A DNA stretch of 64,000 bases from a virus: the IMG/VR virus record IMGVR_UViG_3300044646_003076; one strand, 5' to 3'. The first letter of the stretch is position 1, and each line of letters opens with the position of its first letter. The position numbers and the translations under genes were made by a program. Shown in pieces: positions 4,457 to 48,972 of the stretch. Under the pieces are notes generated by a model. That model was given only the letters and a program-made list of their open reading frames with translations, was not told where the DNA came from and ran no database searches.

Positions 4457-6228
4457 CTATTATTAAAAACTATCGCACTCATAATTGCGGTCAATTGACA
4501 TCTAAAAATGTTAATGAGATTGTGACGCTTTCTGGATGGATTGATCGTAGACGCGATCATGGTAAATTGATTTTTATTGATCTTCGTGATAGTAGCGGAG
4601 TGATTCAATTAGTTTTATCTAATGAAAATTCCGAACGTCTGAGAGTGGAGACTGTTATTCAGATTATCGGAACCGTTATTTCTAGACCGATTGAGAATAT
4701 CAATAATGAAATTTCAACGGGAGAGATAGAAGTAGAGGTAAGCGATTTAGTTATTCTAAACGAGGTTAAACACGTTCTACCATTTTCTGTTTCAAGAAAT
4801 GAAAGAACTGTTGTGAATGAAGAGTTACGTTTACAGAATCGTTATCTTGATCTTAGAAGTAAACGCATGAGTGATAATATACGAATGCGCCATAAAGTAA
4901 CAAGATCCATTCGTAATTTCTTAGAATCGGAAAATTTTATTGAAGTTGAAACACCTATTCTTAATCGTTCAACTCCAGAAGGTGCAAGAGAATACTTGGT
5001 ACCAAGTAGAATCTATAAAGGAGAATGGTTCTCTCTTTCTCAATCACCACAACTGTTTAAACAGATGCTGATGGTGGGTGGAATTGAAAGATATTATCAA
5101 ATTGCACGATGCTTCAGAGATGAATCTTTAAGAGTTGATCGGCAACCAGAATTTACACAAATTGATTTAGAGATGAGTTTCATGTCTCAAGATGAAATTC
5201 TTTCTCTTAGTGAGAGAATGATTTATAATATCTGGAAAGAAGCAAAAGGCGAAGAATTATCCATTCCTTTTTCTAGAATGAGTTGGAAAGAATCAATGGA
5301 GAGATATGGAACCGATCGGCCAGATATTCGTTATGGGTTAGAATTATTGGATGTATCAAAAATCTTTTCTGATTGTGGTTTTAAGGTATTTTCCAATGCG
5401 ATTAAGAGTGGTGGAGTTGTTAAATGTATTACCATCAATTCTAATAACGAAACAATTACAAAATCCCGTCTTAAAATTGGAGGAGATCTAAATGATTTGG
5501 CGATAAATTTGGGTTCCGGTGGACTCGCATACATCAAAATAAATGACGACCATGAATTTGATTGTATCAACGCCATTAAAGACAATTTAACAGAATTCCA
5601 AAAAACTGAACTGTTAGAAATAACAGAAGCTACATCTGGAAGTCTGATTATATTTTGTGCTGGTACATCTGATGTTGTCAACAAAACACTAGGCAAAATT
5701 CGTCAAGTTCTTGCAGAGGAATTGAATCTCATTACGAATGTAGATTCTTTTTTGTGGATTGTTGATTTTCCTATGTTTGAACATAATCCAATTGAGAATA
5801 AATTGTGCTCGCTTCATCATCCTTTTTGTGCTCCAATTGAAGACGATTTAGGAACAGAACCCGATTTATGGTCTGAGCGAATTGTTCGCTGCCGAGCACA
5901 ATCTTATGACTTGGTTCTCAATGGATACGAATTGGGTGGTGGCTCATTACGAATTCATGATTCCGAATTACAGAGAAAAGTTTTACAGATTCTCGGTCTT
6001 TCTGAAGAAAAGATTGATGATCAATTTGGATTTCTTTTAAATGCATTGGATTCTGGTGCTCCCCCTCATGGCGGATTGGCTTTTGGTTTAGATAGAATTG
6101 TTATGCTTCTTTTGAATGAAGAATCTATTCGTGATGTTATTGCCTTTCCGAAAAGCTCACAAACTAGATGTCTCCTAACGGGTGCTCCTTCAACTGTTTC
6201 AGATAACCAACTTCTTGAATTTGAATAG
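4453..6228 (+). CDS. aspS: aspartyl-tRNA synthetase (cyanobacterial type, probably non-discriminating)
   Basis: RTHNCG, RRDHGKLIFIDLRD OB fold, SPQLFKQ, motif 2 ARCFRDE..RQPEFTQID, GAD insert, HHPF, GGSLRIH, motif 3 GAPPHGGLAFGLDR. Confidence 0.97.
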   Translation: MTIIKNYRTHNCGQLTSKNVNEIVTLSGWIDRRRDHGKLIFIDLRDSSGVIQLVLSNENSERLRVETVIQIIGTVISRPIENINNEISTGEIEVEVSDLVILNEVKHVLPFSVSRNERTVVNEELRLQNRYLDLRSKRMSDNIRMRHKVTRSIRNFLESENFIEVETPILNRSTPEGAREYLVPSRIYKGEWFSLSQSPQLFKQMLMVGGIERYYQIARCFRDESLRVDRQPEFTQIDLEMSFMSQDEILSLSERMIYNIWKEAKGEELSIPFSRMSWKESMERYGTDRPDIRYGLELLDVSKIFSDCGFKVFSNAIKSGGVVKCITINSNNETITKSRLKIGGDLNDLAINLGSGGLAYIKINDDHEFDCINAIKDNLTEFQKTELLEITEATSGSLIIFCAGTSDVVNKTLGKIRQVLAEELNLITNVDSFLWIVDFPMFEHNPIENKLCSLHHPFCAPIEDDLGTEPDLWSERIVRCRAQSYDLVLNGYELGGGSLRIHDSELQRKVLQILGLSEEKIDDQFGFLLNALDSGAPPHGGLAFGLDRIVMLLLNEESIRDVIAFPKSSQTRCLLTGAPSTVSDNQLLEFE

Positions 6229-6478: not shown

Positions 6479-6561
6479 GAGGACACTTTTTGAACTGTCC
6501 ACCAACCATCCACAACCACCTTCTTCTCCGTTAGTATTCTCGCTGTCGTACTGAACCAACC

Positions 6562-7836
6562 ATGACCAAAGAAGCAACTTTTGAAACTGCCGATCTCTTT
6601 ATTAAGCCTGATGAAGTTTCTTACTTCTCAACTCCGCGCTCCATCTCACATTATAACAACAAACGTGCAGAATATGATGCACTAGAAGCCGAAGAGCGAA
6701 ACTCCAATGGTGAAGTAGACAACAAGATCAAAAAAGCATGTGTTGTTGGTCCACTCATTATTGCTGCAGCCAAAACACTTTCTCTTCATAAAATTTGGCC
6801 AGATATTCCGACTGATTATTTCCGAAATTATCGGCATCTTCTTGAGCTACCAATTCAACTTGAACATCTCAATGATGAGAATGTCTCAAAATGGCTTCGG
6901 GATAATATGTCATATCGGACATTCTTCAATATGATTTATCGTCATGCTCTCCATTACGGAAAAGTTCTTTATCAAGAAGTACAACCACCGAAAAATCTGG
7001 ATAATGTAAACTTTGAAGAACTTCTTAAATCGGAAGAAGGTCCACTGGAAAATATTCTGGATCGGTTGGCAATTCGGGAAGAGCAGATCTATGAGAACTA
7101 TCTCAATGGTATTACCAAAGATCATCTAGAATCAAACCGCGCCATCAACATTCTTTATCATATTGCAGGTCATCCGAACACCTCTTCAGAAACATTGGCC
7201 CGATTGGGTGCCAGGGGAGATCATGTTTCATGTGTGGAGCGACAAATTGCTCTAAATCCGAATACGCCAGAAGAACTTCGTAAACTTCTTATCGTGGAAC
7301 ATGGTATTGAAGATGTAAATTCCCAACTCAAAGACACACTTGATCAGCTCCAAAAAATGCTGCTTAATGGTGCCACTATCGCACCCGAAACACGTAAAGA
7401 TGATGGTACGATTAAAAAATGGCGCTGGCGTCTTATTGATTTTCACGATAACATCAGCTATCTGTATCTGATGCAAGAGATCAAAAATGTAGAGTTCACC
7501 AATAATACAATCAAAAATCCATATCAAGAAGGTTCTTGGACTGTTTATCAACCCAAAGACAGCGTGGCACTGGCAATGTGGGCACAAAAAGTCAAGAATT
7601 GTGTTCGTGTACGTGAAGGCAATGTTCATAGTGGAAATTCCGAAATTGTGTTCATTGAACGTGATGGTCTCCCAGCATATACTGTTGAGGTTAAGCCAGG
7701 ATCACCCAAACGGCGAAATCTATCTGAACTTTCTATTGAAGAGATTCAGGCTTTTGGTGCTCGCAGTGGTGCGACACGCGATGATCAAGGAGTAATTCTG
7801 GATATGATTAAACGTGCGATGGGTGCGAATGTATGA
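6562..7836 (+). CDS. PcfJ-like domain protein with internal degenerate LRV units
   Basis: C-term WTVYQPKDSVALAMWAQKVKNCV resembles PcfJ; HPNTSSETLARL...ALNPNTP LRV-like. Confidence 0.55.
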   Translation: MTKEATFETADLFIKPDEVSYFSTPRSISHYNNKRAEYDALEAEERNSNGEVDNKIKKACVVGPLIIAAAKTLSLHKIWPDIPTDYFRNYRHLLELPIQLEHLNDENVSKWLRDNMSYRTFFNMIYRHALHYGKVLYQEVQPPKNLDNVNFEELLKSEEGPLENILDRLAIREEQIYENYLNGITKDHLESNRAINILYHIAGHPNTSSETLARLGARGDHVSCVERQIALNPNTPEELRKLLIVEHGIEDVNSQLKDTLDQLQKMLLNGATIAPETRKDDGTIKKWRWRLIDFHDNISYLYLMQEIKNVEFTNNTIKNPYQEGSWTVYQPKDSVALAMWAQKVKNCVRVREGNVHSGNSEIVFIERDGLPAYTVEVKPGSPKRRNLSELSIEEIQAFGARSGATRDDQGVILDMIKRAMGANV

Positions 7837-8039
7837 ATTACAAACTACTAATTTATTTTCTACTCTTTGAGATTGGAGAATTCACCGCATTTTGGCTGAT
7901 TGCCGATTATATTCCACTGGCATTGACACAACTACAGATCTTTATTGGTCTTATTGTTATTGATGTGATAGTAACCAAAATCGTATTTCCTGGTGCATTT
8001 ATCACTCTTTACCGAAACATCTTCAACAAACCCAATTGA
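7833..8039 (+). CDS. small membrane protein
   Basis: two hydrophobic segments. Confidence 0.65.
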   Translation: MNYKLLIYFLLFEIGEFTAFWLIADYIPLALTQLQIFIGLIVIDVIVTKIVFPGAFITLYRNIFNKPN

Positions 8040-8456: not shown

Positions 8457-9014
8457 ATGAATAAAGTTGAATTAGCTAAAGATCCAAACACTCCACTAGA
8501 AACTTTAGAACTTCTAGCGACAGATAAGTATTCTAGTGTTCGCTCCAGAGTAGCACAAAATCCCAATACACCACCAAAAGTCTTAGAACAACTAGCGACT
8601 GATGAGGATGATTTGATTCGTTATTGGGTAGCAGAAAATCCAAACACACCACCAAAAGTTCTAGAACAACTATCAACCGAAAAGGATTCTAGTGTTCGCT
8701 CCAGAGTAGCACAAAATCCCAATACACCACCAAAAGTCTTAGAACAACTAGCGACTGATGAGGATTGGTATGTTCGTTGGGATGTAGCAAAGCATCCCAA
8801 CGCACACCCAAAAGCCCTAGAACAATTAGCGACCGATAAGGATTCTTCGGTTCGTCGTGGTGTAGCATATAATCCAAACACTCCACCAAAAGCCTTAGAA
8901 CAACTAGCGACCGATGAGGATCTTTATGTTTGTCGTAGTGTGGCACGAAATCCAAACACACCACGCTACATCAAAAAGTATATTAAAATTCAAGAACATC
9001 TAAAAACATTATGA
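8457..9014 (+). CDS. LRV repeat protein, 6 units + C-tail
   Basis: 78-nt units; tail PRYIKKYIKIQEHLKTL. Confidence 0.9.
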   Translation: MNKVELAKDPNTPLETLELLATDKYSSVRSRVAQNPNTPPKVLEQLATDEDDLIRYWVAENPNTPPKVLEQLSTEKDSSVRSRVAQNPNTPPKVLEQLATDEDWYVRWDVAKHPNAHPKALEQLATDKDSSVRRGVAYNPNTPPKALEQLATDEDLYVCRSVARNPNTPRYIKKYIKIQEHLKTL

Positions 9015-10691: not shown

Positions 10692-11014
10692 ATTCTAAAA
10701 TAGTACAAGCTAATAGCCCAAACACCCCAACAAAAGTCCTAGAACAACTAGCGACCGATGCGGATTATCTTGTTCGTTTGGGGGTGGCACATAATCCAAA
10801 CACACCACCAAAAATATTAGAACAACTAGCGACTGATAAGAATCTTGGTGTTCGTTATTGGGTAACAAGAAATCCAAACACACCACCAAAAACCTTAGAA
10901 GTTCTAGCGACCGATAAGAGTTCTGAGGTTCGTGAATGTGTAGCAAGAAATCCAAACACACCACACTACATCAAAAAGTATCTTAAAATTCAAGAACATC
11001 TAAAAACATTATGA
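10682..11014 (+). CDS. LRV repeat protein, 3 units + C-tail
   Basis: repeat units and tail PHYIKKYLKIQEHLKTL. Confidence 0.9.
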   Translation: MDLNSKIVQANSPNTPTKVLEQLATDADYLVRLGVAHNPNTPPKILEQLATDKNLGVRYWVTRNPNTPPKTLEVLATDKSSEVRECVARNPNTPHYIKKYLKIQEHLKTL

Positions 11015-17683: not shown

Positions 17684-18724
17684 ATGGCTAAGAGTAATCA
17701 GCTTATTCCAAAAATTCCCGAAGAAGCGTCTTCTGCGATTGATCTAGCCAAGAAAACAACAGATAGAGCTGTTCTTATTGCTCTTTCAAAACATACTAAT
17801 GATGATGTAAGATTCTTTGTTGCTGAAAATCGTTACACTCCTGTCGAAGTTCTCCGGGAACTTTCAAAGGATCCATATTTTACTGTTCGGCTTAAAGTTG
17901 CGGGAAATCCTTCAACTCCTTCAGATGTTTTAGAGAATATTATGGAAAATGATATTTCTCTTAAGGCAGAAGTGGAAAATAATCTTTCTTATAAAAGTAA
18001 AGATAAAGAAGAAGTTCAGGCTTTTCTTAAGAACATTAGTATAACTGATGCCAAAAATTTAGCGGAAAATATTAATACTCCTCCTGAGACACTTATTAAA
18101 CTTGCCAGACATAAAGATTCACTTGTTACTTATCATATATCTTGTAATCCCATGACTCCAACAGAAGCTCTTAGAATTCTTGCCACTCTTGATGATCATG
18201 TTGTAAGAAAATATGTGTTTGATCATAATAATTCGTCAGCAGAAACCTTAGCTATTATTGATGATAGAGACGGTTTTACCACAGGACATTTTAGGATTCT
18301 TTACGACAAACAGGCCAGAATTATTGAAAAATACAAAAGAGAAGAAACACAAAGAGTTGCACAACAAGAACAAGAACAGAAACGTCTAAAAGAAAAAGAA
18401 GAAAAACTTCAGAGAGAATTAGAACTGAGACAAGAATCTCAAAGAATCCTCGCAATTATTAGTAATCCTGAAACACCTATTGAAGAATTATTAAAATACA
18501 GCTATCGTGAAGAACTCATTAACAACCCAACCTATAGGAGATACCTAAATCTCAATAAGACAGACCCAACTGATTTAGAAATTCTAGATTTTCTAGATTG
18601 GGTCTATAATGCAGACACAGAAAAACTAGAAGCCTTTGCTAAACTAGATTTATCTAAGAAATTATCATTGTGGGAAAAACTAATTCTGTTCTTTAAAAAT
18701 CTCTTTAACGGAAAAACATTATGA
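17684..18724 (+). CDS. degenerate LRV/HEAT repeat + coiled-coil protein
   Basis: VRFFVAENRYTPVEVLRELSKD, VAGNPSTP units; Q/E/K-rich helix. Confidence 0.8.
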   Translation: MAKSNQLIPKIPEEASSAIDLAKKTTDRAVLIALSKHTNDDVRFFVAENRYTPVEVLRELSKDPYFTVRLKVAGNPSTPSDVLENIMENDISLKAEVENNLSYKSKDKEEVQAFLKNISITDAKNLAENINTPPETLIKLARHKDSLVTYHISCNPMTPTEALRILATLDDHVVRKYVFDHNNSSAETLAIIDDRDGFTTGHFRILYDKQARIIEKYKREETQRVAQQEQEQKRLKEKEEKLQRELELRQESQRILAIISNPETPIEELLKYSYREELINNPTYRRYLNLNKTDPTDLEILDFLDWVYNADTEKLEAFAKLDLSKKLSLWEKLILFFKNLFNGKTL

Positions 18725-25581: not shown

Positions 25582-25864
25582 TTAAAGGAAATGTTATTGG
25601 AATTATTGGATGCATTCTAATCACACTCATCGTAATCATAGTCACTTATCTAGTGGAAGCCTATAAAAACTACTAATTTATGATAAGTCTAGCAATTTAT
25701 GTCATTTTGTTTCTTCTACTGATCATCTTATATTGTGCAGGTTCATTAATGATTTTTTTGATTATTGAAATCCTAAATGATTAATGTGCCAGTTGAGCTA
25801 GTGTCCACTCTGGCGGCCGTTATTCCGATAAAAGTGTTATAATTAAAAAGTCTTCAAATCTTCA

Positions 25865-26120: not shown

Positions 26121-27506
26121 ATGAAACTTCAAGAAATTATTGCCCGTCTGAACACCAAAGAAGAACCCTATTCCGGTGAAGATCTTCAAAAGGAGCTTGG
26201 TCACCAAAATCCAGTGGATCTTTCAATCTTTGGTTTCACTATTCGCACGATCAAGAAATATAGCACTTCCGTAAGAGCTGCCTATAAACTCATTTACCAT
26301 AGTGGTGTTCCAATTTGTATTGCTCATTATTATCAATCATTTCAATATTTTTTGGTTGATTATACGTGGATCAGTGAAGAGATCTATTGGAATATCCTGA
26401 AAATTATTAAAAATATTCACTCTCAAGATATTCGTCTTATTGATCAAAATGAAGAATGGGATCCCGTTGATATTGAACTGGAACCAATTAGTGAAATTAT
26501 TCTGTCCGAAAGACAGAAACTTGAACTGGCAAAAAATCCAAATACTTCTTCTGGATTGTTGGAGTTTCTTGCATCCGATGAGAATGAAGAGGTTCGTTCG
26601 GGAGTAGCACAAAATCCCAATACTCCACCAAAAGTCCTAGAACAACTAGCGACCGATGAGTATTCTTATGTTCGTTGTTGTGTAGCACATAATCCAAATA
26701 CTTCAACAAAAACACTAGAACAACTAGCGACCGATAAGGATTATTGGGTTCGTTGGAGAGTAGCAAAACATCCAAACACATCACCGAAAGTTCTGGAACG
26801 ACTAGCAACAGAAGAGACTGATATTAATGATTATGTTCGTCATGCTGTAGCAGAAAACCCAAATACCCCATCAGAGTTCCTAGTACGTCTAGTAACCAAA
26901 GCTACAGGAGCGTCCGATGTTGATGTTTATATTCGTCGGGGAGTAGCAGGAAATCCAAACACACCATCACCAACATTAGAAGTTCTAGTGACCGATGAAA
27001 ATGATAATGTTCGGAAACTAGCGACCGAAAATCTTAAATCAAGGAATGAAGAGGTTCGTCGGTATGTGGCAGGAAATCCAAACACACCACGTACAACATT
27101 AGAAGTTCTAGCGACCGATGATGATGATTATGTTCGTTGGTTTGTAGCACAAAATCCAAACACACCACCAGAACTTCTAGAAGTGTTGGCGAATGATGAG
27201 GCTCTTAATGTTCGTTGGTTTGTAGCAAAAAATCCAAACACACAGTCAAAAGCCTTAGAACTTCTAGCAATCAATAAGGATTTTGGTGAGCATCATTGGG
27301 GAATTCACTGTGGAGTAGCAGAGCACCCAAACACTCCATTAAAAACTTTAGAACTTTTTGTGACCCATAATAATGGTGCAGTTCGTTATTGTGTGGCAGG
27401 AAATCCAAAAACACCAACCGAAGTCTTAGAAGTGTTGGTTAATGATGAGTTTCTTAATGTTCGGGAACGAGCGACCGAAAATCTTAAATCAAGGACGGTT
27501 GCTTAA
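26121..27506 (+). CDS. fusion of N-terminal domain (paralog of 31960 gene) and about 11 LRV units
   Basis: N-term aligns with 31960-32535; LRV array from about 26515. Confidence 0.85.
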   Translation: MKLQEIIARLNTKEEPYSGEDLQKELGHQNPVDLSIFGFTIRTIKKYSTSVRAAYKLIYHSGVPICIAHYYQSFQYFLVDYTWISEEIYWNILKIIKNIHSQDIRLIDQNEEWDPVDIELEPISEIILSERQKLELAKNPNTSSGLLEFLASDENEEVRSGVAQNPNTPPKVLEQLATDEYSYVRCCVAHNPNTSTKTLEQLATDKDYWVRWRVAKHPNTSPKVLERLATEETDINDYVRHAVAENPNTPSEFLVRLVTKATGASDVDVYIRRGVAGNPNTPSPTLEVLVTDENDNVRKLATENLKSRNEEVRRYVAGNPNTPRTTLEVLATDDDDYVRWFVAQNPNTPPELLEVLANDEALNVRWFVAKNPNTQSKALELLAINKDFGEHHWGIHCGVAEHPNTPLKTLELFVTHNNGAVRYCVAGNPKTPTEVLEVLVNDEFLNVRERATENLKSRTVA

Positions 27507-38999: not shown

Positions 39000-39439
39000 C
39001 ACCTGTTACAATAACTAACATTTGCTTCGGTATTATTATATCGGAGCATTTGTTATATCTTTACATTTAGTCTTAATAACATCTTATAGTGTCCGTAAGA
39101 GTTATTATACATGATACAATGCACTAATGGTCCATGAGTGTTCCAGTTTATCAAGTGTCCACTGCTACCACCGCTCCTTCATAATATGGGTTATTGTTAT
39201 TAAGTTCTCAAGAGATCACTCAAATGGAGACTGTTTTATTGTATTGAAATCTGAATAGCAATTCATTTAATAACATCTTTCTGGAGAATCTAATGGATGT
39301 TCCTTTCCTGTTCTTTTTTATTGTCTTTACAATCATGGGTTGGGCCATTTACTATAACAACCACAACGAATAAGACACTTCATAAACCGTCTACTAATAA
39401 CATCACACCTACAATAACAACGAATCATTCAAAACAACT

Positions 39440-39628: not shown

Positions 39629-39994
39629 ACTCAAAAGTGTTTCATATAGCTAGGACTAATAATCCTAGCTTTTTATTGTCTAATAATCTAATAACATAAA
39701 TAATAACAGGTAATAACAATCCTCTTACACCTCCGGCCTCTGTAGTCACTGTCTCAAAGAGATCAAATTACACACCACTAAGGTTCTTAAAGATTAAAAA
39801 TCCTACTTCCAACCGAATAACAAAAACAGTAATAAAACTGATTATATTTTATTGCTTATAATAATTCAAGTAGAAAGCGTTAGCGCAATCTACGATTTTT
39901 TAGTATCTGCGTGTACCAGTTTATCAAGTGTCCACTGCTACCACCGCTCCTTCATAATATGGGTTATTGTTATTAAGTCCTCAGGGAAACAACA

Positions 39995-40168: not shown

Positions 40169-40403
40169 GTAATAATCTACAGATACGGCCACAAAACTGA
40201 CCAGATCCTTCCATAGTGTTTCATATAGCTAGGACTAATAATCCTAGCTTTTTATTGTCCAATAATAATTCAAGTAGAAAGCGTTAGCGCAATCTACGAT
40301 TTTTTAGTATCTGCGTGTACCAGTTTATCAAGTGTCCACTCATGGTTGCTTGATCTTTTAATACCTGTTATATTGTTATTGATCTAAAAGAATTCCACTC
40401 GCC

Positions 40404-41678: not shown

Positions 41679-41987
41679 ATGAAAATCTATCTTGATGATG
41701 AGCGGTCAACACCAACAGGATGGATTCGTTGTTATTGGCCCGATGAGGTTATAACACTTCTACAGAATAACATCGTTGATATTATCTCACTGGATCACGA
41801 TCTTGGTGATGATAATAGAGGCACAGGAAACGATGTAATCTTATGGATTGAAGAACAAGTCTTTACCAATAACTATAAGCCGCCGATTATTCAGGTGCAT
41901 TCGGCTAACAGTTCTGCGAGATTGAAGATGGAGAATGGTATTAAATCCATTCAAAGACGAGTAGCGAGACTCTGTGCCACTTCATAA
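41679..41987 (+). CDS. cyclic-phosphate-processing receiver-like domain protein
   Basis: KIYLDDER, ISLDHDLG, TGNDVILWIEE, VHSAN. Confidence 0.75.
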   Translation: MKIYLDDERSTPTGWIRCYWPDEVITLLQNNIVDIISLDHDLGDDNRGTGNDVILWIEEQVFTNNYKPPIIQVHSANSSARLKMENGIKSIQRRVARLCATS

Positions 41988-42057
41988 GCTGTCCACCGGA
42001 ACCACCGATTCCCAATAATCCGCTGTATTGTTATTAAGTCCCAGAAAAGGAATTTCA

Positions 42058-42881: not shown

Positions 42882-42998
42882 CAACCATACACATTTAACA
42901 ATAAACACCAATAATATCTGCTGAGGTATAACAATACTTCAGCTTTTGTTATATTCTTATTTTTTGTCTTAAAAAATGAATAGGGTGTCCGTATCTGT

Positions 42999-43092
42999 AT
43001 TCTACTGATGGTGTTGGGATCCGTCAAGCATTCTTCCATAAGCAATTCTGATCGGTTAAGGGGTTGACCTAAGCGGTTCCAGGGTCTATATT
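42999..43092. promoter_or_regulatory. Class B divergent sigma70 promoter pair 1
   Basis: left TTGACG-17-TAGAAT; right TTGACC-17-TATATT; core ataagcaattctgatcggttaa. Confidence 0.85.
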
Positions 43093-43119
43093 ATGGAAGT
43101 TCATCAGACAAGCCTTCTT

Positions 43120-43488
43120 ATGTCCCGGAATCCCGCTCCCGAACTGAAGCACGACATTGCAGTTCATGAGGGGTTCGTAACCCTGAATAATAACGATGAT
43201 GGTTTCTATACACAATACTTCAATAATCGGGAAGAGGTTGAGCAATTCATCGCTGAGCTACGTGAGGCAATGGATAATGTATGGCCGGATGGTGTTAATC
43301 CTGAAGAACTGCAGGAAGAATGTTATCAAAAACGAGAGGAAGAGCGTCAAGAATACTTGCGCAATAATCCTCCTCGGCCACAAACACCAGAAGAGATTGA
43401 ACGTAATAAAAGGCTGATGACACTTCTTGATAAACTGGCTAATGATGATTCATATAGTGTTTGTTCTCATGTAGCGGAAAATCCCTGA
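43120..43488 (+). CDS. hypothetical protein ending in one LRV unit
   Basis: C-term LLDKLANDDSYSVCSHVAENP*. Confidence 0.7.
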   Translation: MSRNPAPELKHDIAVHEGFVTLNNNDDGFYTQYFNNREEVEQFIAELREAMDNVWPDGVNPEELQEECYQKREEERQEYLRNNPPRPQTPEEIERNKRLMTLLDKLANDDSYSVCSHVAENP

Positions 43489-43566
43489 TTCATCACACCA
43501 TAAGCACCTATCCACAACATAATACGTTAACACCCTCCTCTACCACTGCCTTTTCAGCGACATTAT

Positions 43567-43604
43567 TGTGCTCAGGGAGTCCTTTATCCTTGAGCACATT
43601 TTTG
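43567..43604 (+). terminator. rho-independent terminator
   Basis: tgtgctcaggga/tccttgagcaca + ttttt. Confidence 0.7.
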
Positions 43605-43806
43605 TAGCTGAGATCCAAGATGATCTAAATAAATCTAAAAAACCTTTTATCGGGAATTTCGGTCTGAAGGTGCTATGGGTCATTCCGTCAAATAAGATCA
43701 CCGATAATTTCATTGTTATAATAAATGTTATGTGCCAGTCCATAAGCTGTCCACCGATACTCTCATGTTCCCATAATCTGCTGTATTGTTAAGAAGTCTT
43801 CAGAGA

Positions 43807-44151
43807 ATGTCTCTCATGGCTCTCAATTGGAAAGTTCCTGTTTCTTCTCTTCTGAGCCGTCTTCAGGATAATGACTATAAGATTTTCTCAGTCAATAATG
43901 GAGGCGAGACTATTCTTATTGACCAGAATCTTTCCAATGGAACTGCAAGAGCAAAGGCAGTAGAAGAGATTGTTTCTGTAGACGCATCTGCAATTGCTCT
44001 TATCAAGAATAAACAAACATTTGCGGTTTATATTGTATTAGGTAATGATCCACATGAGATTGCAGCCGATTATACTAATGATGAAGAATTGGAAAAAGTT
44101 ATTGATGAATTTGCTGATAGTTGGCAGGATAAGAAATGTCCTAGGATGTGA
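43807..44151 (+). CDS. hypothetical protein
   Basis: follows last class A promoter. Confidence 0.75.
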   Translation: MSLMALNWKVPVSSLLSRLQDNDYKIFSVNNGGETILIDQNLSNGTARAKAVEEIVSVDASAIALIKNKQTFAVYIVLGNDPHEIAADYTNDEELEKVIDEFADSWQDKKCPRM

Positions 44152-44241
44152 AACAATGATGAAATAATAACCCTAGAGTAATTCTGGGGTTTTATTGTTT
44201 ATAATTTGAGAAGAAAAATAAGATAGTCTGTCCGTATCTCT

Positions 44242-44335
44242 ATTCTAGTCGTATTTTATCGGCTGTCAAGGTCTGAACTGATAAGCACTTCTGATCGGTT
44301 AAAGGCTTGACGTAGGCATCAATCCGGTCCATACT
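44242..44335. promoter_or_regulatory. Class B divergent promoter pair 2
   Basis: left TTGACA-16-TAGAAT; right TTGACG-17-CATACT. Confidence 0.85.
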
Positions 44336-44360
44336 ATGGAAGTCAACCGGAACCGATCCG

Positions 44361-44528
44361 ATGGCCCAAACCTTCCGCCCTGTCTGCGACATTCAGAGCA
44401 GAAATCCGTTCATGGTAGCGGTAATCAAAGATGATGAGAACCTTCTCATCGACGGGGAACCTTCAGTAATTCCAATGTGGTGGATCGCATCGGAATATGC
44501 GAAACTTTATGCTGGTGATGTGAAATGA
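44361..44528 (+). CDS. 55-aa hypothetical protein
   Basis: first ORF after promoter; stop overlaps next ATG. Confidence 0.6.
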   Translation: MAQTFRPVCDIQSRNPFMVAVIKDDENLLIDGEPSVIPMWWIASEYAKLYAGDVK

Positions 44529-44734
44529 GCAATACTAAATTCCGAATTGTTAAATATAACGATTCCTTTGAAGAACTTCACATTCTTCAAGTCTGTCACT
44601 CGTATGAGGAAGCAGACCAAAGATTCCAATACTGGGATGAGAAATACCCAAACGATTATATTGAAATTCTTACTCCAGAAGACTGGAGATATTTTCAATT
44701 AGGTTCTAATCCCTCTGTTTTTGTTACATCATGA
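44525..44734 (+). CDS. hypothetical protein
   Basis: tiles operon. Confidence 0.7.
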   Translation: MSNTKFRIVKYNDSFEELHILQVCHSYEEADQRFQYWDEKYPNDYIEILTPEDWRYFQLGSNPSVFVTS

Positions 44735-45093
44735 TTTTCCAAACAAGTTACACGATCACCGGGCATCTTCAGCGCCAATTAGCGGCAGTTGCTACTCCAA
44801 TCGTTGAGAATTGGTTCACAGATGTACTGATCCACGACACTGCTGCTACCGAAGATATGGAAATTGGCGAAGTTCGTTTATGGGCACTTCGCAAAACGGG
44901 TACATGGTTGTGTACTCTGAAGCAAGATATTTCTGAGCATAACGAATTCACTGGACTTGTTACTTCAATTATGAGGCATCCCGATGAATATAATGACGGA
45001 TATTATCATCTTTTTCTATTGCATAAGATCTCAGCAGATAAGCTGAAGATTACACCGACAACTTATGAAGAAATGTCCTATGTGAATGTGTGA
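44731..45093 (+). CDS. hypothetical protein
   Basis: WALRKTGTWL motif. Confidence 0.7.
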   Translation: MIFQTSYTITGHLQRQLAAVATPIVENWFTDVLIHDTAATEDMEIGEVRLWALRKTGTWLCTLKQDISEHNEFTGLVTSIMRHPDEYNDGYYHLFLLHKISADKLKITPTTYEEMSYVNV

Positions 45094-45175
45094 GATAACA
45101 AATGCCCCGGAGAAATCTGGGGTTTTTATTGTTTATACTTTGATAAGAAAAATAGAATAGGATCTCCGTATCTGT

Positions 45176-45270
45176 ATTCTAGTCATATTTTTATCGGTTG
45201 TCAAGGTCTGGAGTCATAACCATTTCTGATCGGTTGAAGGCTTGACGTATGCGGCTTCCGGGTCCATACT
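45176..45270. promoter_or_regulatory. Class B divergent promoter pair 3
   Basis: left TTGACA-17-TAGAAT; right TTGACG-17-CATACT. Confidence 0.85.
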
Positions 45271-45300
45271 ATGGAAGTCAACCGCAAGGAAATTGATCCC

Positions 45301-45597
45301 ATGGACCAAGCCGATTTTCTCGCTATTGCCAAAGAAACCGCATCTTACGTGATAGAGCACGAGCGGAATAATGTTCTGAGCAACAAAAATAATCTTGATC
45401 TTTCAACATTCAGTTCCTTTCTTGATGGGATCAAAGGCCACCAATACTATAATGCCTTAGTGTTGAAATGTGATGGATGTGAGACGTACATTCTCATGCA
45501 GCTTAATACAGATTATCGTGAAATCGTGTGTAGAATGTCGGGTGATGAAGCCCGCGAATTCGTAGAGCATTTTCATGATATTGTCCTGAACGAATGA
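45301..45597 (+). CDS. hypothetical protein
   Basis: start MDQADF after aagga. Confidence 0.7.
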   Translation: MDQADFLAIAKETASYVIEHERNNVLSNKNNLDLSTFSSFLDGIKGHQYYNALVLKCDGCETYILMQLNTDYREIVCRMSGDEAREFVEHFHDIVLNE

Positions 45598-45694
45598 TCT
45601 GAATACAAACACATTTGCTAGGGTATAACAATACTCTAGCATTTGTTATAGTCTTATATTTTGTGGAAAAATAAGATAGTCTGTCCGTATCTCT

Positions 45695-45789
45695 ATTCTA
45701 CTGGTAATAATCCAGTTTGTCAAGGTCTGGAGTCATAAGCACTTCTGATCGGTTAAGGGCTTGACGTATGCGGCTTCCGGGCCCATACT
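45695..45789. promoter_or_regulatory. Class B divergent promoter pair 4
   Basis: left TTGACA-17-TAGAAT; right TTGACG-17-CATACT. Confidence 0.85.
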
Positions 45790-45814
45790 AAGGAAGTCAA
45801 CCGGAACCGATCCG

Positions 45815-46012
45815 ATGAGCAACCTTTCCCCAACCGTTTATCAAGACAACGGATTCGCAGATAGGAAAGAATACCTCGATTCTTTGCGGGAAGAGTATGG
45901 CGGTTTGGTGGATGTTCTCACCAGCATTCTTCCAGCATCAGAAGATTTTGATGGCTTGGTTACGGAATTGGAAGATGCTCTGGCCAGCGGAGAATATGAC
46001 GAATTGATCTGA
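45815..46012 (+). CDS. acidic early protein (YQDNGFADRKEYLDSLREEYG...EDFDGLV)
   Basis: pattern recalled from cyanophage early genes. Confidence 0.75.
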   Translation: MSNLSPTVYQDNGFADRKEYLDSLREEYGGLVDVLTSILPASEDFDGLVTELEDALASGEYDELI

Positions 46013-46334
46013 TTTCTTACTTTTATTCCATCGCATTTCTTCCCATGGACGCTTCCAACCTTTCCGCATCACAAGCTAGAGAAAAGATCATTGAATGGGG
46101 AGAAGAATTCACATTTGAGATTGTCTGTCGTGAAATCGTGTGTAGAATGTCGGGTGATGAAGCCCGCGAATTTGTGGAGGATTTTCATGATAATGTCCTG
46201 AACAATTGAGAAGATCAAATCTTGGTACAATTGAATAACAAATACAAACACATTTGCTTCGGTATTATTATATCGGAGCATTTGTTATATTATTATACTT
46301 TCTTGTAAAAATAGAATAGTCTGTCCGTATCTCT

Positions 46335-46429
46335 ATTCTACTGGTAATAATCCAGTTTGTCAAGGTCTGGAGTCATAAGCACTTCTGATCGGTTAAGGGC
46401 TTGACGTTTGCCACGGCTGGGTCCATACT
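46335..46429. promoter_or_regulatory. Class B divergent promoter pair 5
   Basis: identical to pair 4 over about 90 bp. Confidence 0.85.
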
Positions 46430-46459
46430 AAGTAAGTCAAACAACCCGGAAGGTTTCCG

Positions 46460-46810
46460 ATGAACTCGTCTCATCCGATCTTTAAGAGTCTTCCTTCTCT
46501 TAAAAGGGAGATTCGGGAACTTCTCATCTCAATCAAAAAAGATCAGGATTGGAAACAACTTCGCGCTGATTTTTCGGATGATGAGACACCACATATTCAG
46601 GTGACCATCGGTTGCACATTTAATGAAGGTACAATCTCATGGAATTATCAAACTGGAGACAATTCCTACACTGGTGGTGCTTATGACCACCCAGAATGGT
46701 TCATTGTTTATCTAACGAGTCGTGCAAATTGTTCTAACGAAGCGAAAGATATTATCAGTGAAATTGAAGGAAGAATTTATGAGTGCTTTAGCACTCTTAA
46801 CAATAACTAA
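46460..46810 (+). CDS. hypothetical protein (YQTGDNSYTGGAY motif)
   Basis: first ORF after promoter. Confidence 0.8.
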   Translation: MNSSHPIFKSLPSLKREIRELLISIKKDQDWKQLRADFSDDETPHIQVTIGCTFNEGTISWNYQTGDNSYTGGAYDHPEWFIVYLTSRANCSNEAKDIISEIEGRIYECFSTLNNN

Positions 46811-46830
46811 TCCATTCATTCTGTGATTCC

Positions 46831-47097
46831 ATGTTCTCACTTTTCTTCTTCACTGGCAATGATCCCGAATTAGCTTTTGATATTAAAGATAGAATTGCAC
46901 GATATATTGATGAATACGTCAAAGAAGGCGAATTTGATACCTATGAAAGTGCAATTGATCGGATGAATAATATCGGATCCCGTTGGATATTTTATCCTAA
47001 TGCTTGTATTATTGAAGGCGAAAAAGTTATAGGGATTTATATGGAGGATGGAGTTAATTATACTCCGAAGAAAATTGAAGAGTTTGTGGAAGTATAA
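46831..47097 (+). CDS. hypothetical protein
   Basis: IGSRWIFYP motif. Confidence 0.7.
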   Translation: MFSLFFFTGNDPELAFDIKDRIARYIDEYVKEGEFDTYESAIDRMNNIGSRWIFYPNACIIEGEKVIGIYMEDGVNYTPKKIEEFVEV

Positions 47098-47186
47098 CAA
47101 ACAAAAGGGTTGGGTATAACAATACCTGACCCGATCTTATAGTCTTATATTTTCTTGTAAAAATAGAGTAGGCTTCCCGTATCTGT

Positions 47187-47281
47187 ATTCTATTGGTGAT
47201 AATTCAGTTTGTCAAGATCTGGACTGATAAGCACTTCTGATCGGTTAAACGGTTGACGGTGGCCGATGGTGGTTGTATATT
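47187..47281. promoter_or_regulatory. Class B divergent promoter pair 6
   Basis: left TTGACA-17-TAGAAT; right TTGACG-17-TATATT. Confidence 0.85.
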
Positions 47282-47322
47282 ATGGGTGTTCAAACATTCC
47301 TGGCAGGTTGCCGGCTCCACCG

Positions 47323-47487
47323 ATGCGATTCTCAACCCCACAGAAGATTTCCAAATTTTTCTATCTGGGATGGAATCCGAATTCTTATGATGAGATTTTC
47401 GGATTCTCTCTTTTGAATTTTTACGTCGGATTCTACTACGAATCTGGCTGGTGTGCGGGATTTCTTGACGCGAATGGGTGCCTCTGA
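47323..47487 (+). CDS. small hypothetical protein
   Basis: start MRFSTP. Confidence 0.5.
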   Translation: MRFSTPQKISKFFYLGWNPNSYDEIFGFSLLNFYVGFYYESGWCAGFLDANGCL

Positions 47488-47518
47488 AAAGTATTACAAT
47501 CCTCTCGCAGTCTTTCCC

Positions 47519-47884
47519 ATGAAATCACTCAAGATCCCCGTTGTTCTCACCACAACAAAAATAACTGAAGATCAATGGAAAGAGTTTATTTCTGATACAA
47601 TCGGTGACATTTCTGGTGAAATGGTTACAGTTGGGCCATGGCAAGTTCCGGTTAAGTTTGTGGCACTAGCAGCATCTTATACGTGGAAAAATGAAGGTTA
47701 TGGGGCTGTTATTGAATCTGTTACGCTATATGGAAAGCGCACGCTATGCAGAGTAAAAGAAAGCGACTATAAGTTGGAGGGTATCGTTAGCATTAAAGGT
47801 GTGAAGAGGAGAGCCTATACTTCTTCCATTATGTTTGAACTTCCCGATGGTCGGCTATATAATGTGGCAACAATTCAGGTATGA
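47519..47884 (+). CDS. hypothetical protein (duplicate of 48607-48972)
   Basis: high nucleotide identity to C-term of 48205 gene. Confidence 0.75.
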   Translation: MKSLKIPVVLTTTKITEDQWKEFISDTIGDISGEMVTVGPWQVPVKFVALAASYTWKNEGYGAVIESVTLYGKRTLCRVKESDYKLEGIVSIKGVKRRAYTSSIMFELPDGRLYNVATIQV

Positions 47885-48067
47885 AATAGCAAACACAATA
47901 ATTATACAATGGCCCCGATTAACCTCCGGGGTTTTTTATTGTCTTCTAATCTATTTGTTATTTTCTATAACAGTCTGTAGCATTTGTTTGTATTATTATA
48001 TGCGTCTAATTTGTTTGTTATATTATTATACTTTATGAAAAAACAGTACAGGGCTCCCGTTGATTTA

Positions 48068-48162
48068 ATTATACAGCCGAGGCTGGCCATAGTCAAGGTC
48101 TGGAGTCATAAGCATTCCTGATCGGTTAAACGGTTGACGGTGGCCGATGGTGGCTGTATATT
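48068..48162. promoter_or_regulatory. Class B divergent promoter pair 7
   Basis: left TTGACT-17-TATAAT; right TTGACG-17-TATATT. Confidence 0.85.
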
Positions 48163-48204
48163 ATGAGAGTCCAAACATTCCTGGCAGGTTGCCAGGCTCA
48201 TTCC

Positions 48205-48972
48205 ATGGAAAGGCTCAAAGGTTCTAGTCTTGCTCGCACCGTTAAATTCATGCGGGAAGCCGGAAAGACTACTAAAGAGATAGTAATATCTTGTGGATAC
48301 GGTAGAGAAGAAGAAGGTAAAATTCCACATTATACAGCATTTTACGAGGAGCTTCTTATCGTTCGTGATAACGAAAAGCGATATGAAGCGATGTCTAGTA
48401 ATGTGAACAAACGCCGCGATAATGTTTTGCATTATTTGCTTTCTGCAATTGAGTATAGAACGAAATATGAATATAGAAACGATTGGGCAGATCGTTGTGA
48501 TTATAGCGAGGAATCATACAGTGCTGATGATAACTATATTGTCCGTTATTATGGCGATAAGATTGCACTTTTCACCCAAACTGGGGTGCAATTTTTTATT
48601 CCTTCAATGAAATCTCTCACTCTTCCCGTTAATGTCACCACAGCAAAAATAACCGTTGAGCAATGGAAAGAGTTTATTTCCGAAACAATCGGGGACATTT
48701 CTGGTGAAATGGTCACAGTTGGGCCATGGAAAGTTCCGATTAAGATTGTAGCACTAGCAGCATCTTATACGTGGAAAAATGATGGTTACGGTGACTTTAT
48801 TGAATCTGTTACGCTATATGGAAAGCGGACTCTCTGCAATGTAAAAGAAAGCGGCTATGATTTGGAAGGTATCGTTAGCATTAAAGGTGTGAAGAGGAGA
48901 GCCTATACTTCATCCATTATGTTTGAACTGCCAGATGGGCGCCTATATAATGTGGCAACCATTCAGGTATGA
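48205..48972 (+). CDS. fusion: AbrB-like cyanobacterial regulator N-domain + middle module + copy of 47519 protein
   Basis: LKGSSL...KEIVISCGY...HYTAFYEELL resembles the AbrB-like CGY/FTAFYEALL motif. Confidence 0.6.
   Translation: MERLKGSSLARTVKFMREAGKTTKEIVISCGYGREEEGKIPHYTAFYEELLIVRDNEKRYEAMSSNVNKRRDNVLHYLLSAIEYRTKYEYRNDWADRCDYSEESYSADDNYIVRYYGDKIALFTQTGVQFFIPSMKSLTLPVNVTTAKITVEQWKEFISETIGDISGEMVTVGPWKVPIKIVALAASYTWKNDGYGDFIESVTLYGKRTLCNVKESGYDLEGIVSIKGVKRRAYTSSIMFELPDGRLYNVATIQV

Follow-up and report, generated by a model that had tools for sequence, protein, structure and literature searches.

The early-gene region of an uncultured phage carries seven copies of an element that behaves like the PeSL cassette junctions of T4-type phages and like a recombination seam, a point missed in an earlier sequence-only reading of this DNA. 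New in comparison with the known PeSL cassettes is a backward-facing promoter without a gene. We consider it about an even chance (probability roughly 0.5) that these junctions are PeSL-like with a bidirectional promoter, whose leftward arm is under selection and acts in cis at the cassette boundary.

Phage region and anatomy of the junction element

By its gene content the virus is T4-like and cyanophage-related: the gp6 baseplate protein is 64% identical to that of the Synechococcus phages B3/B23, and the baseplate genes form a T4-like set. The seven copies lie within 5.3 kb of what appears from sequence to be the hyperplastic early-gene region of the phage. Ten ORFs downstream of them were compared with Pfam, where none belongs to a family, and with PHROGs, where a single one matches a group of unknown function; the cargo genes can be classed as ORFans. 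They are coding on the + strand; the substitutions between six ORFs of the window (the whole 64-kb stretch analysed) and their counterparts in the related contig G001 are distributed 48/27/84 over codon positions 1/2/3.

The anchor sequence TCTGATCGGTTRANNGNTTGAC occurs seven times in the window, always on the + strand, as compared to 0.03 occurrences in shuffles, and a repeat finder recovered a 64-nt core in seven copies and a repeat of 100-173 nt in five to six. This number is far above chance and all copies are genuine, which confirms the seven back-to-back sigma70 promoter pairs claimed before, with one anchor at the place of each. The -35 to -35 distance of 36-37 bp was likewise verified (36 bp in copy 1, 37 bp in the other copies). 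The element size of ~95 bp, in contrast, was too small, as the repeat extends over ~170-200 nt and also takes in the upstream terminator hairpin along with the 5' leader of the rightward transcript.

Each junction consists of the terminator hairpin of the upstream gene, an AT-rich stretch and a dyad-symmetric bidirectional promoter, in this order. Terminator-like hairpins with T-tails were found by a scan 5' of copies 1-5, while those of copies 6 and 7, unflagged by the scan, were read directly from the sequence. The leftward arm has the form TTGAC(A/G/T)-16/17-TA(G/T)AAT and the rightward arm TTGAC(C/G)-17-(C/T)ATA(C/T)T; the rightward TTGAC-17-TAnnnT promoters are located 25-45 nt upstream of ATGs. 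Both promoters are mirror-symmetric around the dyad ATAAG-N5-CTGAT, whose centre is exactly midway between the -35 boxes. The palindrome originally described, TCATAAG-CA-CTTCTGA, has to be revised to this midway register, which reads ATAAGCA-N-TGCTTAT-like and is a perfect palindrome in other phages. The predicted leftward and rightward starts are ~108 bp apart, each ~54 bp from the dyad. In 596 Gb of cellular genomes the composite of core and -35 boxes was not detected beyond chance level. In the following list the starts of the predicted leftward RNAs were placed from the -10 position, and their 3' ends are likewise predictions.

42999..43027, - strand: copy 1 leftward promoter TTGACG-17-TAGAAT (consensus scan)
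42908..42992, - strand: copy 1 predicted leftward non-coding RNA; ACGG start 42992, complement of terminator hairpin 42920-42943
43028..43063, no strand: copy 1 core, 36 bp between the -35 boxes, dyad ATAAG-N5-CTGAT
43064..43092, + strand: copy 1 rightward promoter TTGACC-17-TATATT, precedes ORF 43093-43488
44242..44269, - strand: copy 2 leftward promoter TTGACA-16-TAGAAT (consensus scan)
44158..44235, - strand: copy 2 predicted leftward RNA; start 44235, hairpin complement 44169-44191
44270..44306, no strand: copy 2 core, 37 bp
44307..44335, + strand: copy 2 rightward promoter TTGACG-17-CATACT, precedes ORFs 44361-45093
45176..45204, - strand: copy 3 leftward promoter TTGACA-17-TAGAAT (consensus scan)
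45093..45169, - strand: copy 3 predicted leftward RNA; start 45169, hairpin complement 45104-45123
45205..45241, no strand: copy 3 core, 37 bp, ATAAC variant
45242..45270, + strand: copy 3 rightward promoter TTGACG-17-CATACT, precedes ORF 45271-45597
45695..45723, - strand: copy 4 leftward promoter TTGACA-17-TAGAAT (consensus scan)
45605..45688, - strand: copy 4 predicted leftward RNA; start 45688, hairpin complement 45616-45641
45724..45760, no strand: copy 4 core, read directly as 11 nt, ATAAGCA, C, TTCTGAT, 11 nt; dyad centre 45742 exactly midway
45761..45789, + strand: copy 4 rightward promoter TTGACG-17-CATACT (consensus scan)
46335..46363, - strand: copy 5 leftward promoter TTGACA-17-TAGAAT (consensus scan)
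46244..46328, - strand: copy 5 predicted leftward RNA; start 46328, hairpin complement 46255-46280
46364..46400, no strand: copy 5 core, 37 bp
46401..46429, + strand: copy 5 rightward promoter TTGACG-17-CATACT, precedes ORF 46460-46810
47187..47215, - strand: copy 6 leftward promoter TTGACA-17-TAGAAT (consensus scan)
47097..47180, - strand: copy 6 predicted leftward RNA; start 47180, hairpin complement ~47108-47133, best leftward U-tail UUUUGUUUGUU
47216..47252, no strand: copy 6 core, 37 bp
47253..47281, + strand: copy 6 rightward promoter TTGACG-17-TATATT (consensus scan)
48068..48096, - strand: copy 7 leftward promoter TTGACT-17-TATAAT; spacer and flanks unrelated to copies 1-6
47904..48060, - strand: copy 7 predicted leftward RNA, ~155 nt; start 48060, first strong hairpin the complement of terminator 47914-47932
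48097..48133, no strand: copy 7 core, 37 bp
48134..48162, + strand: copy 7 rightward promoter TTGACG-17-TATATT, precedes ORF 48163-48972
39013..39109, - strand: eighth ("half") module; TATAAT -10 39104-39109, ACGG start 39096, complement of hairpin 39024-39047

The eighth module is an addition to the seven leftward starts counted before, all of which stand. Located at ~39096-39109, it lacks both the TTGACA -35 box and the core and adjoins a different upstream motif (39138-39160).

Cassette exchange at the junctions

Comparison of the window with G001 revealed a homology block ending at position 45246, in the right -35 box of copy 3, and another one starting at 47211, in the left -35 box of copy 6. 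The paired elements of both genomes are mosaic; cassettes have been replaced and the breakpoints are situated inside the element. PeSL cassettes are known from the T4-type phage pairs RB49/phi1, PST/T4 and nt-1/KVP40 (Arbiol et al., 2010, PMC2839356; Comeau et al., 2014, PMC4122927), and recombination between neighbouring copies yields mini-circles (PMC2839356). Like these, the junctions described here combine a stem-loop terminator with a sigma-70-like early promoter, a leader and a start codon, and they are repeated as many near-identical copies among small ORFans in a hyperplastic region (PMC2839356, PMC4122927). The kind of exchange is shared as well, since close relatives differ by insertion, deletion or replacement of cassettes with crossovers inside the element (PMC2839356, PMC4122927); between the window and G001 it is replacement. 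Three features distinguish our element: the unit is longer (~170-200 nt), a palindromic core is centred between two back-to-back -35 boxes, and a second promoter, near-consensus and facing outward, has a conserved start of its transcribed sequence but no gene. Antisense, bidirectional or opposite-strand promoters are not mentioned in the PeSL papers (PMC2839356, PMC4122927).

Conservation of the gene-less leftward promoter

Promoters were scored as matches to the sigma-70 consensus out of 12. The leftward sites rank first in a consensus scan of 40-52 kb, with 11/12 in six copies (five times TTGACA-16/17-TAGAAT and TTGACT-17-TATAAT in copy 7) and 10/12 in copy 1 (TTGACG), compared with 9-10/12 for the rightward sites. 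Leftward arms make up six of the ten sites with at least 11/12 in the window, as compared to ~3 such sites per 64 kb in approximate shuffles. On paper, the leftward arm would thus be stronger than the rightward arm which drives the genes.

For the analysis of conservation 21 distinct elements were collected from the window and four related contigs (G001, G002, L042 and L050), which amount to fewer than 21 independent observations, as recombination can make the copies of a genome more alike. Both promoters are kept in 21/21 elements, and retention of the right promoter with loss of the left one, the outcome that would speak against the sequence-only reading, does not occur within this family. 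Per position the leftward -35 box holds 1.91 bits, the -10 box 1.83 and the spacer 0.62; the corresponding values of the gene-driving rightward promoter are 1.77, 1.39 and 0.52. The leftward spacer exists in 19 sequence variants with a length of always 16-17 nt, and the -10 box appears as TAGAAT, TATAAT, TAGTAT or TAGACT with T1, A2 and T6 invariant. Hexamers are kept while the spacer sequence is free, a pattern of the sigma-70 type. The same holds for copy 7 and the copies of G002, in which spacers and flanks are unrelated and yet hexamers and spacing are retained. As had been claimed, the leftward promoter is preserved despite sequence turnover in copy 7, and this extends to the relatives; it faces no conserved ORF.

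Variants of this layout extend beyond the complete elements. Among seven "half" modules without -35 box five have a perfect TATAAT, and in G002 and L050 the promoter with its ACGG module flanks a single core twice, in mirror image, and again faces no ORF. In the more distant contigs L032, L038, L040, L041 and L043 actual ORFs are driven by the leftward arm of this symmetric arrangement. L022, of another lineage, has a leftward TTGACA-17-TATACT promoter facing the upstream terminator, with unrelated transcribed sequence. Further phage contigs have a tRNA gene immediately followed by the core and the right promoter, without leftward promoter, so that the leftward arm is not obligatory for the core to work.

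Back-to-back promoters sharing a central operator are familiar from lambda PR/PRM and from LysR-type divergent promoters. In common with these, two outward promoters depart from a shared, putatively protein-binding region, and in the distant contigs with the same core both arms drive ORFs; unlike there, one arm is gene-less here, and the unit, present at least seven times in tandem, forms a cassette seam. Another kind of bidirectional promoter owes its two directions to symmetry of the -10 element; such promoters are over-represented in DNA that moves horizontally, and each of their two starts stimulates the other (Warman et al., bioRxiv 10.1101/2020.01.31.928960). Our element would share with them divergent transcription from a single compact region. 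Their -10 elements overlap and their starts are 7-25 bp apart (bioRxiv 10.1101/2020.01.31.928960), whereas here the -35 boxes stand back to back with the dyad between them and the predicted starts are far more distant.

Predicted leftward RNAs and their possible role

The predicted leftward RNAs contain no ORF and are uniformly ~75-85 nt long in seven of eight copies (copy 7 ~155 nt). As proposed before, the transcript would begin with ACGG...CUAUUCUAUUUUU and enter the complement of the upstream terminator. Its first ~22 bases (ACGG...CTAYYCTATTTTT) are conserved with 1.2-1.4 bits per position. The 5' 45 nt are AT-rich and unstructured, and the complement of the terminator hairpin is the sole significant structure; the AU-rich hairpin postulated previously showed no significant fold (z -1.8 to +1.1), and alignment of the leftward RNAs gave no consensus structure. 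Except for copy 6, the leftward terminators are weak on paper, being A-rich directly after the hairpin followed by a U/G-rich tail, so that transcription may continue into the upstream gene.

According to the favoured reading both promoters would belong to the sigma-70 (group 1 sigma) class of the host, with a palindromic site at their centre to which presumably a dimeric factor binds at equal distance from both starts. The rightward arm would express the next cassette. The leftward arm, kept by selection, would fire toward the preceding gene and produce a short non-coding transcript complementary to the terminator and the 3' untranslated end of the upstream mRNA; this transcript would end at the same hairpin, read in reverse. 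Candidate modes of action in cis are antisense cover of the 3' end of the upstream mRNA, a block to read-through by convergent transcription, and/or a coupling by negative supercoils which would aid opening of the weaker gene promoter. Since L022 keeps the geometry with unrelated transcribed sequence, firing or antisense cover seems to matter rather than a seed. The conservation of the first ~22 bases exceeds the need of a pure act of transcription and leaves room for a function at the RNA level or in pausing.

Cis-antisense RNAs are known from cyanophage infection, i.e., CfrI of S-PM2 and the asRNAs which shield mRNAs from RNase E in Prochlorococcus, and in this group of hosts duplex formation is a documented route to altered mRNA stability (PMC2984593; Stazic et al., 2011, PMC3113571). 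The transcripts predicted here would similarly overlap a gene end. The published examples are single loci or kilobase-long (PMC2984593, PMC3113571), whereas ours would be a family of short RNAs predicted at every cassette junction.

Promoters, turnover, absence of an ORF and the predicted ACGG start of the earlier interpretation are supported, but its seed-bearing sRNA is not. A family of trans-acting ~80-nt RNAs, in which a single-stranded 5' ACGG-N6-CUAYYCUAUUUUU pairs with host or phage mRNAs and the terminator complement serves as 3' stem, is unlikely, and less likely than a role in cis. It would agree with the uniform length, with the moderate conservation of the 5' segment at 1.2-1.4 bits per position over ~30 nt and its persistence in "half" modules and in the gene-less mirrored copy, and with the resemblance of an unstructured AU-rich 5' part before a 3' hairpin to enterobacterial sRNAs. 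The candidate seed, however, varies at most positions (e.g., CCTATTCATTTTTT, GACTATCTTATTTTT, CCCTGTACTGTTTTTT, ACCTGTCTAATTTTT), and the only structure, without covariation outside it, is explained as the + strand terminator. Pairing of the 5' part with the phage's own 5' leaders was not in excess (mean -9.9 vs -9.5 kcal/mol in shuffles), an Rfam match was not found, and in L022 the promoter is retained and not the RNA sequence.

Similarly improbable is that the leftward hexamers are a by-product, kept through the palindromic operator and its flanks and through homogenisation between copies, with firing absent, useless or mere noise. The layout is exactly mirror-symmetric, the -35 boxes of L022 even lie within a perfect 14-bp inverted repeat, the elements clearly recombine, and accidental bidirectional promoters are common in horizontally moving DNA (bioRxiv 10.1101/2020.01.31.928960). 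But the symmetry of the core stops short of the -10 box, which lies 17 bp beyond across an unconserved spacer, is still the second most conserved block and varies according to a TAnnnT rule. Neither the spacing and hexamers kept amid unrelated sequence in copy 7 and G002 nor the "half" modules, which keep -10 box and ACGG start without palindrome or -35 box, fit this explanation.

T4-type origins consist of a promoter followed by an AT-rich unwinding element which holds a persistent R-loop, and reportedly the work of the Kreuzer laboratory on oriF/oriG offers a precedent for promoter plus DNA-unwinding element. The leftward promoter, strong and followed by an AT-rich, unstructured stretch of ~45 bp, resembles this arrangement, and an R-loop could prime the leading strand. 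Such a function is very improbable: eight sites within 9 kb point in the same direction, head-on to early transcription, a stable hairpin directly after each site would end the transcript, the GC skew has no sharp turn at the array, and T4 origins use middle-mode promoters rather than sigma-70 early ones as present here. Scarcely credible is finally a sink for RNA polymerase, in which eight near-consensus promoters, the best matches in the region, titrate the enzyme from host genes, as they would be few against thousands of host promoters, would compete with the phage's own early promoters for the same enzyme, and would leave the conserved transcribed sequence and the position after a terminator unexplained.

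Anatomy of the repeated element and conservation of its leftward arm

Between 42900 and 48162 the window carries seven copies of a repeated junction, in which an upstream terminator hairpin, a leftward promoter, a palindromic core and a rightward promoter follow one another. The seven back-to-back promoter pairs proposed in the sequence-only reading were recovered with the anchor TCTGATCGGTTRANNGNTTGAC, which occurs seven times in the window, always on the + strand, versus 0.03 occurrences in shuffles, and both promoters are present in each copy. The proposed element size of about 95 bp had to be revised: in the alignment the element measures ~170-200 nt, beginning at the upstream terminator hairpin and taking in the rightward -10 and leader. 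The A of ACGG, located 6-7 nt past the leftward -10, was taken as the leftward start.

Anchor positions (+ strand) and predicted leftward starts (- strand, ACGG after -10) in the window
Copy 1: anchor 43047, +; leftward start 42992, -
Copy 2: anchor 44290, +; leftward start 44235, -
Copy 3: anchor 45225, +; leftward start 45169, -
Copy 4: anchor 45744, +; leftward start 45688, -
Copy 5: anchor 46384, +; leftward start 46328, -
Copy 6: anchor 47236, +; leftward start 47180, -
Copy 7: anchor 48117, +; leftward start 48060, -
Half module: leftward start 39096, -

In a consensus scan of 40-52 kb the leftward sites ranked at the top, with 11 of 12 matching positions for TTGACA-16/17-TAGAAT (five copies) and TTGACT-17-TATAAT (one copy) and 10 of 12 for TTGACG-17-TAGAAT of copy 1; the rightward, gene-driving promoters reached 9-10 of 12. 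Ten sites with at least 11/12 were detected across the whole 64 kb, six of them inside the 5-kb array, compared with ~3 per 64 kb in approximate shuffles. The two -35 boxes are 36 bp apart in copy 1 and 37 bp in the others. Copy 4 shows the order TGTCAA, 11 nt, ATAAGCA, C, TTCTGAT, 11 nt, TTGACG, and owing to this symmetric layout the dyad centre lies exactly midway between the -35 boxes. It is ~54 bp away from either predicted start, the starts themselves being ~108 bp apart. The terminator hairpins are part of the repeat (42920-42943, 45616-45641 and ~47108-47133 in the window, and also in relatives) and combine a conserved AT-rich top (GGTATAACAATACC) with covarying lower stems (CTGAGG/CTTCAG, CTAGGG/CTCTAG and others). 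Two further candidates were discarded: the inverted repeat TAGAATAG-N13-CTATTCTA as RNA hairpin or operator, because it is not kept in the more distant relative, G002, and a rightward late-promoter-like TAAAAATA within an A-tract, because it is found in only two of the seven copies.

Relatives were obtained from IMG/VR, namely the close relative G001 (IMGVR_UViG_3300044591_002420, 125 kb) and G002 (IMGVR_UViG_3300042556_001633, an 18-kb fragment); contigs found later were retrieved with a pattern of core and rightward -35 only, so that the leftward promoter was unconstrained. Together with contigs L042 and L050, the window and these two relatives form a family with 21 distinct elements. Within the leftward arm the information per position amounts to 1.91 bits for the -35, 1.83 for the -10 and 0.62 for the spacer, which is 16-17 nt long throughout and has 19 different sequences among the 21 elements. 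The -10 reads TAGAAT (17 elements), TATAAT (2), TAGTAT (1) or TAGACT (1); changes are confined to positions 3-5, and T1, A2 and T6 are never altered. For the rightward promoter the corresponding values are 1.77 (-35), 1.39 (-10) and 0.52 bits (spacer). Judged by sequence, the leftward arm shows the pattern typical of a functional -10/-35 pair, at least as strongly as the gene-driving arm does. The earlier statement that the leftward promoter is preserved under sequence change thus holds for all 21 elements across the 19 spacers, and loss of the leftward promoter in relatives retaining the rightward one, named beforehand as the refuting outcome, was not seen in them. At this level both the anatomy of the element and the selective pattern acting on it are established.

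Cultured phages searched at the DNA level did not contain the element. The closest isolate, Synechococcus phage B3, gave no full-length match to a whole-element HMM or to an HMM of the ACGG module, and a promoter scan of B3 found none arranged back to back; what B3 does have are scattered palindromes resembling the core and an intergenic repeat of another kind. Scanning IMG/VR with the ACGG module for further family members returned G001 and otherwise chance matches.

Predicted leftward RNAs

The first ~22 nt of the predicted leftward RNAs are conserved and consist of ACGG, 6-7 nt and CTAYYCTATTTTT. Next come an AT-rich stretch complementary to the upstream terminator's T-tail and, at +45 to +75, the complement of the terminator hairpin itself, in agreement with the expectation that the RNAs begin with an ACGG-like head and then meet the upstream terminator. 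The postulated AU-rich hairpin is unsupported, since the 5' 45 nt lack significant structure (z from -1.8 to +1.1). RNAalifold detected no consensus structure in 19 leftward RNAs of the family, partly because the terminator types differ and do not align. A comparison with Rfam on either strand yielded nothing relevant, and the leftward 5' parts were not predicted to pair better than shuffled RNAs with 5' leaders of the same phage.

Leftward termination at the hairpin is plausible and not assured, as a good U-tail follows it in copy 6 only; elsewhere an A-rich triplet precedes a U/G-rich tail. If the hairpin ends the transcript, the predicted length is ~75-85 nt, and ~155 nt for copy 7.

The leftward promoter had been described as facing no ORF, and indeed no leftward ORF is common to the copies. 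An ATG inside the hairpin opens antisense frames of 61 and 70 codons in copies 4 and 5; copy 1 has no AUG within the first ~90 nt of its leftward RNA and, by reading, copy 6 has none at the equivalent position. As the frames are not shared between copies and the coding signal lies on the + strand (48/27/84 substitutions versus G001 at codon positions 1/2/3 in six + strand ORFs), they were rejected as genes.

Virus origin, related layouts and cassette exchange

Among the genes of the window are one for a gp6-type baseplate wedge protein, 64% identical to its counterpart in Synechococcus phages B3 and B23, and others for T4-like baseplate parts. Based on this gene set and the gp6 identity, its source is assigned to the uncultured T4-like myoviruses of the cyanophage (Kyanoviridae-like) group. 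A freshwater picocyanobacterium is the probable host, judging from the relatives and the lake origin of related contigs. Other genes of the window are:

4453-6228: full-length class II aspartyl-tRNA synthetase (Pfam tRNA-synt_2, E 3.5e-118, with anticodon-binding and GAD domains)
17684-18724: LRV/HEAT-repeat protein (Pfam LRV)
26121-27506: LRV/HEAT-repeat protein (Pfam LRV)

The core palindrome, TGATAAGCA-N-TGCTTATCA-like, is widespread in other uncultured phage contigs, where it precedes -35 boxes and often has GGTCAA-N4-TTGAC after it. A composite of core and -35 had five matches in 596 Gb of prokaryote genomes, all in unrelated coding sequence and at about chance level, and a host transcription-factor site was therefore rejected; the core looks like a putative phage-group-specific operator. 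Its surroundings outside the family are:

L021, L024, L025, L030, L035, L047: core and right promoter directly after a tRNA gene, no leftward promoter
L022: perfect 14-bp inverted repeat around the core, holding both -35 boxes; leftward TTGACA-17-TATACT faces an upstream terminator, transcribed sequence unrelated to that of the family
L032, L038, L040, L041, L043 (distant, GC-richer): symmetric layout, leftward TTGAC(A/T)-17-(C/T)AT(A/T)CT upstream of ORFs of ~60-100 codons starting ~20-30 nt downstream
L057 (phage B3): core palindrome at 6512-6628 and 10868-10890

Because the leftward side drives ORFs, faces a terminator or lacks a promoter in different contigs, the bidirectional core promoter is best read as an older module, whose left-hand content differs by lineage. 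Within the family, half modules, of which G002 has four, G001 two and the window one (39096-39109), retain -10, ACGG start and subsequent T-run but neither the TTGACA -35 nor the core; five of these seven have a perfect TATAAT. In G002 (8673-8860) and L050 the early cassette array closes with a mirror element, in which promoter and ACGG/T-run module flank one core on both sides; behind the right-hand module come ~190 nt without ORF and then an unrelated, UvrD-like helicase gene. Mirror elements, half modules and distant layouts support a real leftward promoter. One family copy in G002 (7841-8029) has a ~31-nt insertion between core and right -35, which displaces the right promoter and leaves the leftward promoter and its spacing intact.

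Window and G001 are collinear in this region, with whole cassettes replaced. Their homology breaks off within the repeated elements: at 45246 a block stops in the right -35 of copy 3, and at 47211 another one begins in the left -35 of copy 6. When aligned in pairs, the elements are mosaics, with left halves of one type joined to cores or right halves of another. With crossovers located in the core or next to it, what is exchanged comprises right promoter, gene(s), terminator, ACGG module and left promoter, and each cassette is thereby bracketed by predicted convergent promoters. Neighbouring cassette genes also share near-identical segments (45516-45597 and 46128-46209, two 3' ends, 93% over 82 nt; 47519-47818 and 48607-48906, 88% over 300 nt), which suggests crossovers within coding sequence and chimeric genes.

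The promoter-early stem-loop (PeSL) cassettes of T4-type phages, the best-described mechanism by which these phages shuffle small host-adaptation genes, consist of terminator and early promoter, lie in hyperplastic regions, carry ORFan cargo and recombine within the element (PMC2839356, PMC4122927). The array shares with them terminator and early promoter, cargo genes that are ORFans, and crossovers inside the element. Unlike PeSLs as published, which have so far been described as one-way units, its seam is a dyad-symmetric two-way promoter with a conserved gene-less arm. Neither of the two articles mentions an opposite-strand promoter, and our literature search brought up neither PeSLs with a divergent or antisense promoter nor a dyad in cyanophage early promoters. 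The element thus appears to be a PeSL-like cassette seam, with the conserved gene-less arm, which would give a short convergent RNA family, as the new feature.

Possible roles of the leftward arm and further motifs

We infer that the leftward promoter is active at the same time as the early genes, giving a short transcript complementary to the 3' tail of the upstream mRNA, and favour a role in cis at the cassette boundary over one in trans. The leftward RNA could form a duplex with the mRNA 3' end, convergent transcription could block read-through, or negative-supercoil coupling between promoters, an established concept, could ease opening of the weaker gene promoter, whose spacer is GC-rich. 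Divergent starts are reported to stimulate each other reciprocally by a different mechanism (10.1101/2020.01.31.928960), and in infected picocyanobacteria the formation of a duplex is documented to alter how sensitive an RNA is to RNase E (PMC3113571). A bolder reading, to which we assign a probability of roughly 0.2, is that each mobile early-gene cassette of this phage group carries an inward-pointing 3' promoter for an ~80-nt RNA with a shared ACGG...CUAUUCUAUUUUU head. This would be a portable, self-contained post-transcriptional control module travelling with each swapped gene, acting either as a regulatory RNA family on host or phage messages or as an antisense 'cap' that pairs with the cassette mRNA at its 3' end and sets its lifetime, in a host whose RNA turnover is governed mainly by RNase E and antisense RNAs. 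If the promoter fires, each bracketed cassette would have its 3' end covered by a short antisense RNA. Modular gene exchange would thereby gain a further level of regulation, through insulation, mRNA stability or supercoil coupling, and a compact, testable bidirectional promoter part would become available for use in cyanobacterial hosts. Should it stay silent, the element is still a clear case of promoter-like sequence maintained for another reason.

The seed-bearing, trans-acting small RNAs proposed earlier would account for the conserved first 22 nt, but the candidate seed varies between copies and L022 keeps the promoter with an unrelated RNA, so that we consider them doubtful. Equally improbable is an origin of the leftward hexamers as a by-product of palindromy and homogenisation between copies, because the leftward -10 lies outside the symmetric core and obeys a TAnnnT rule across unrelated spacers. 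R-loop priming of replication and titration of RNAP by the leftward promoters are both given low probability.

A second promoter class of the window has no -35 box; instead, its CATAAT and TATTGT boxes are preceded, at ~19 and 31 nt, by a ~21-bp motif, GTGCCAGT-N-(A/C)(A/G)(G/C)TGTCC:

39138-39160: motif, the only copy in the window with a backward TATAAT/ACGG partner
39913-39933: motif
40317-40337: motif
41974-41994: motif
43732-43752: motif
25786-25806: motif
2062-2082: motif

A related motif (…AAGTGTCC…) recurs in the intergenic repeats of B3. G001 possesses a second core type (GATAAAATGTTCTTATC; L019 9390, 11886 and 13748) missing from the window, which is paired with a different right promoter, TTGACA-17-TATTGT, in two of its three copies and may represent a separate regulatory subclass.
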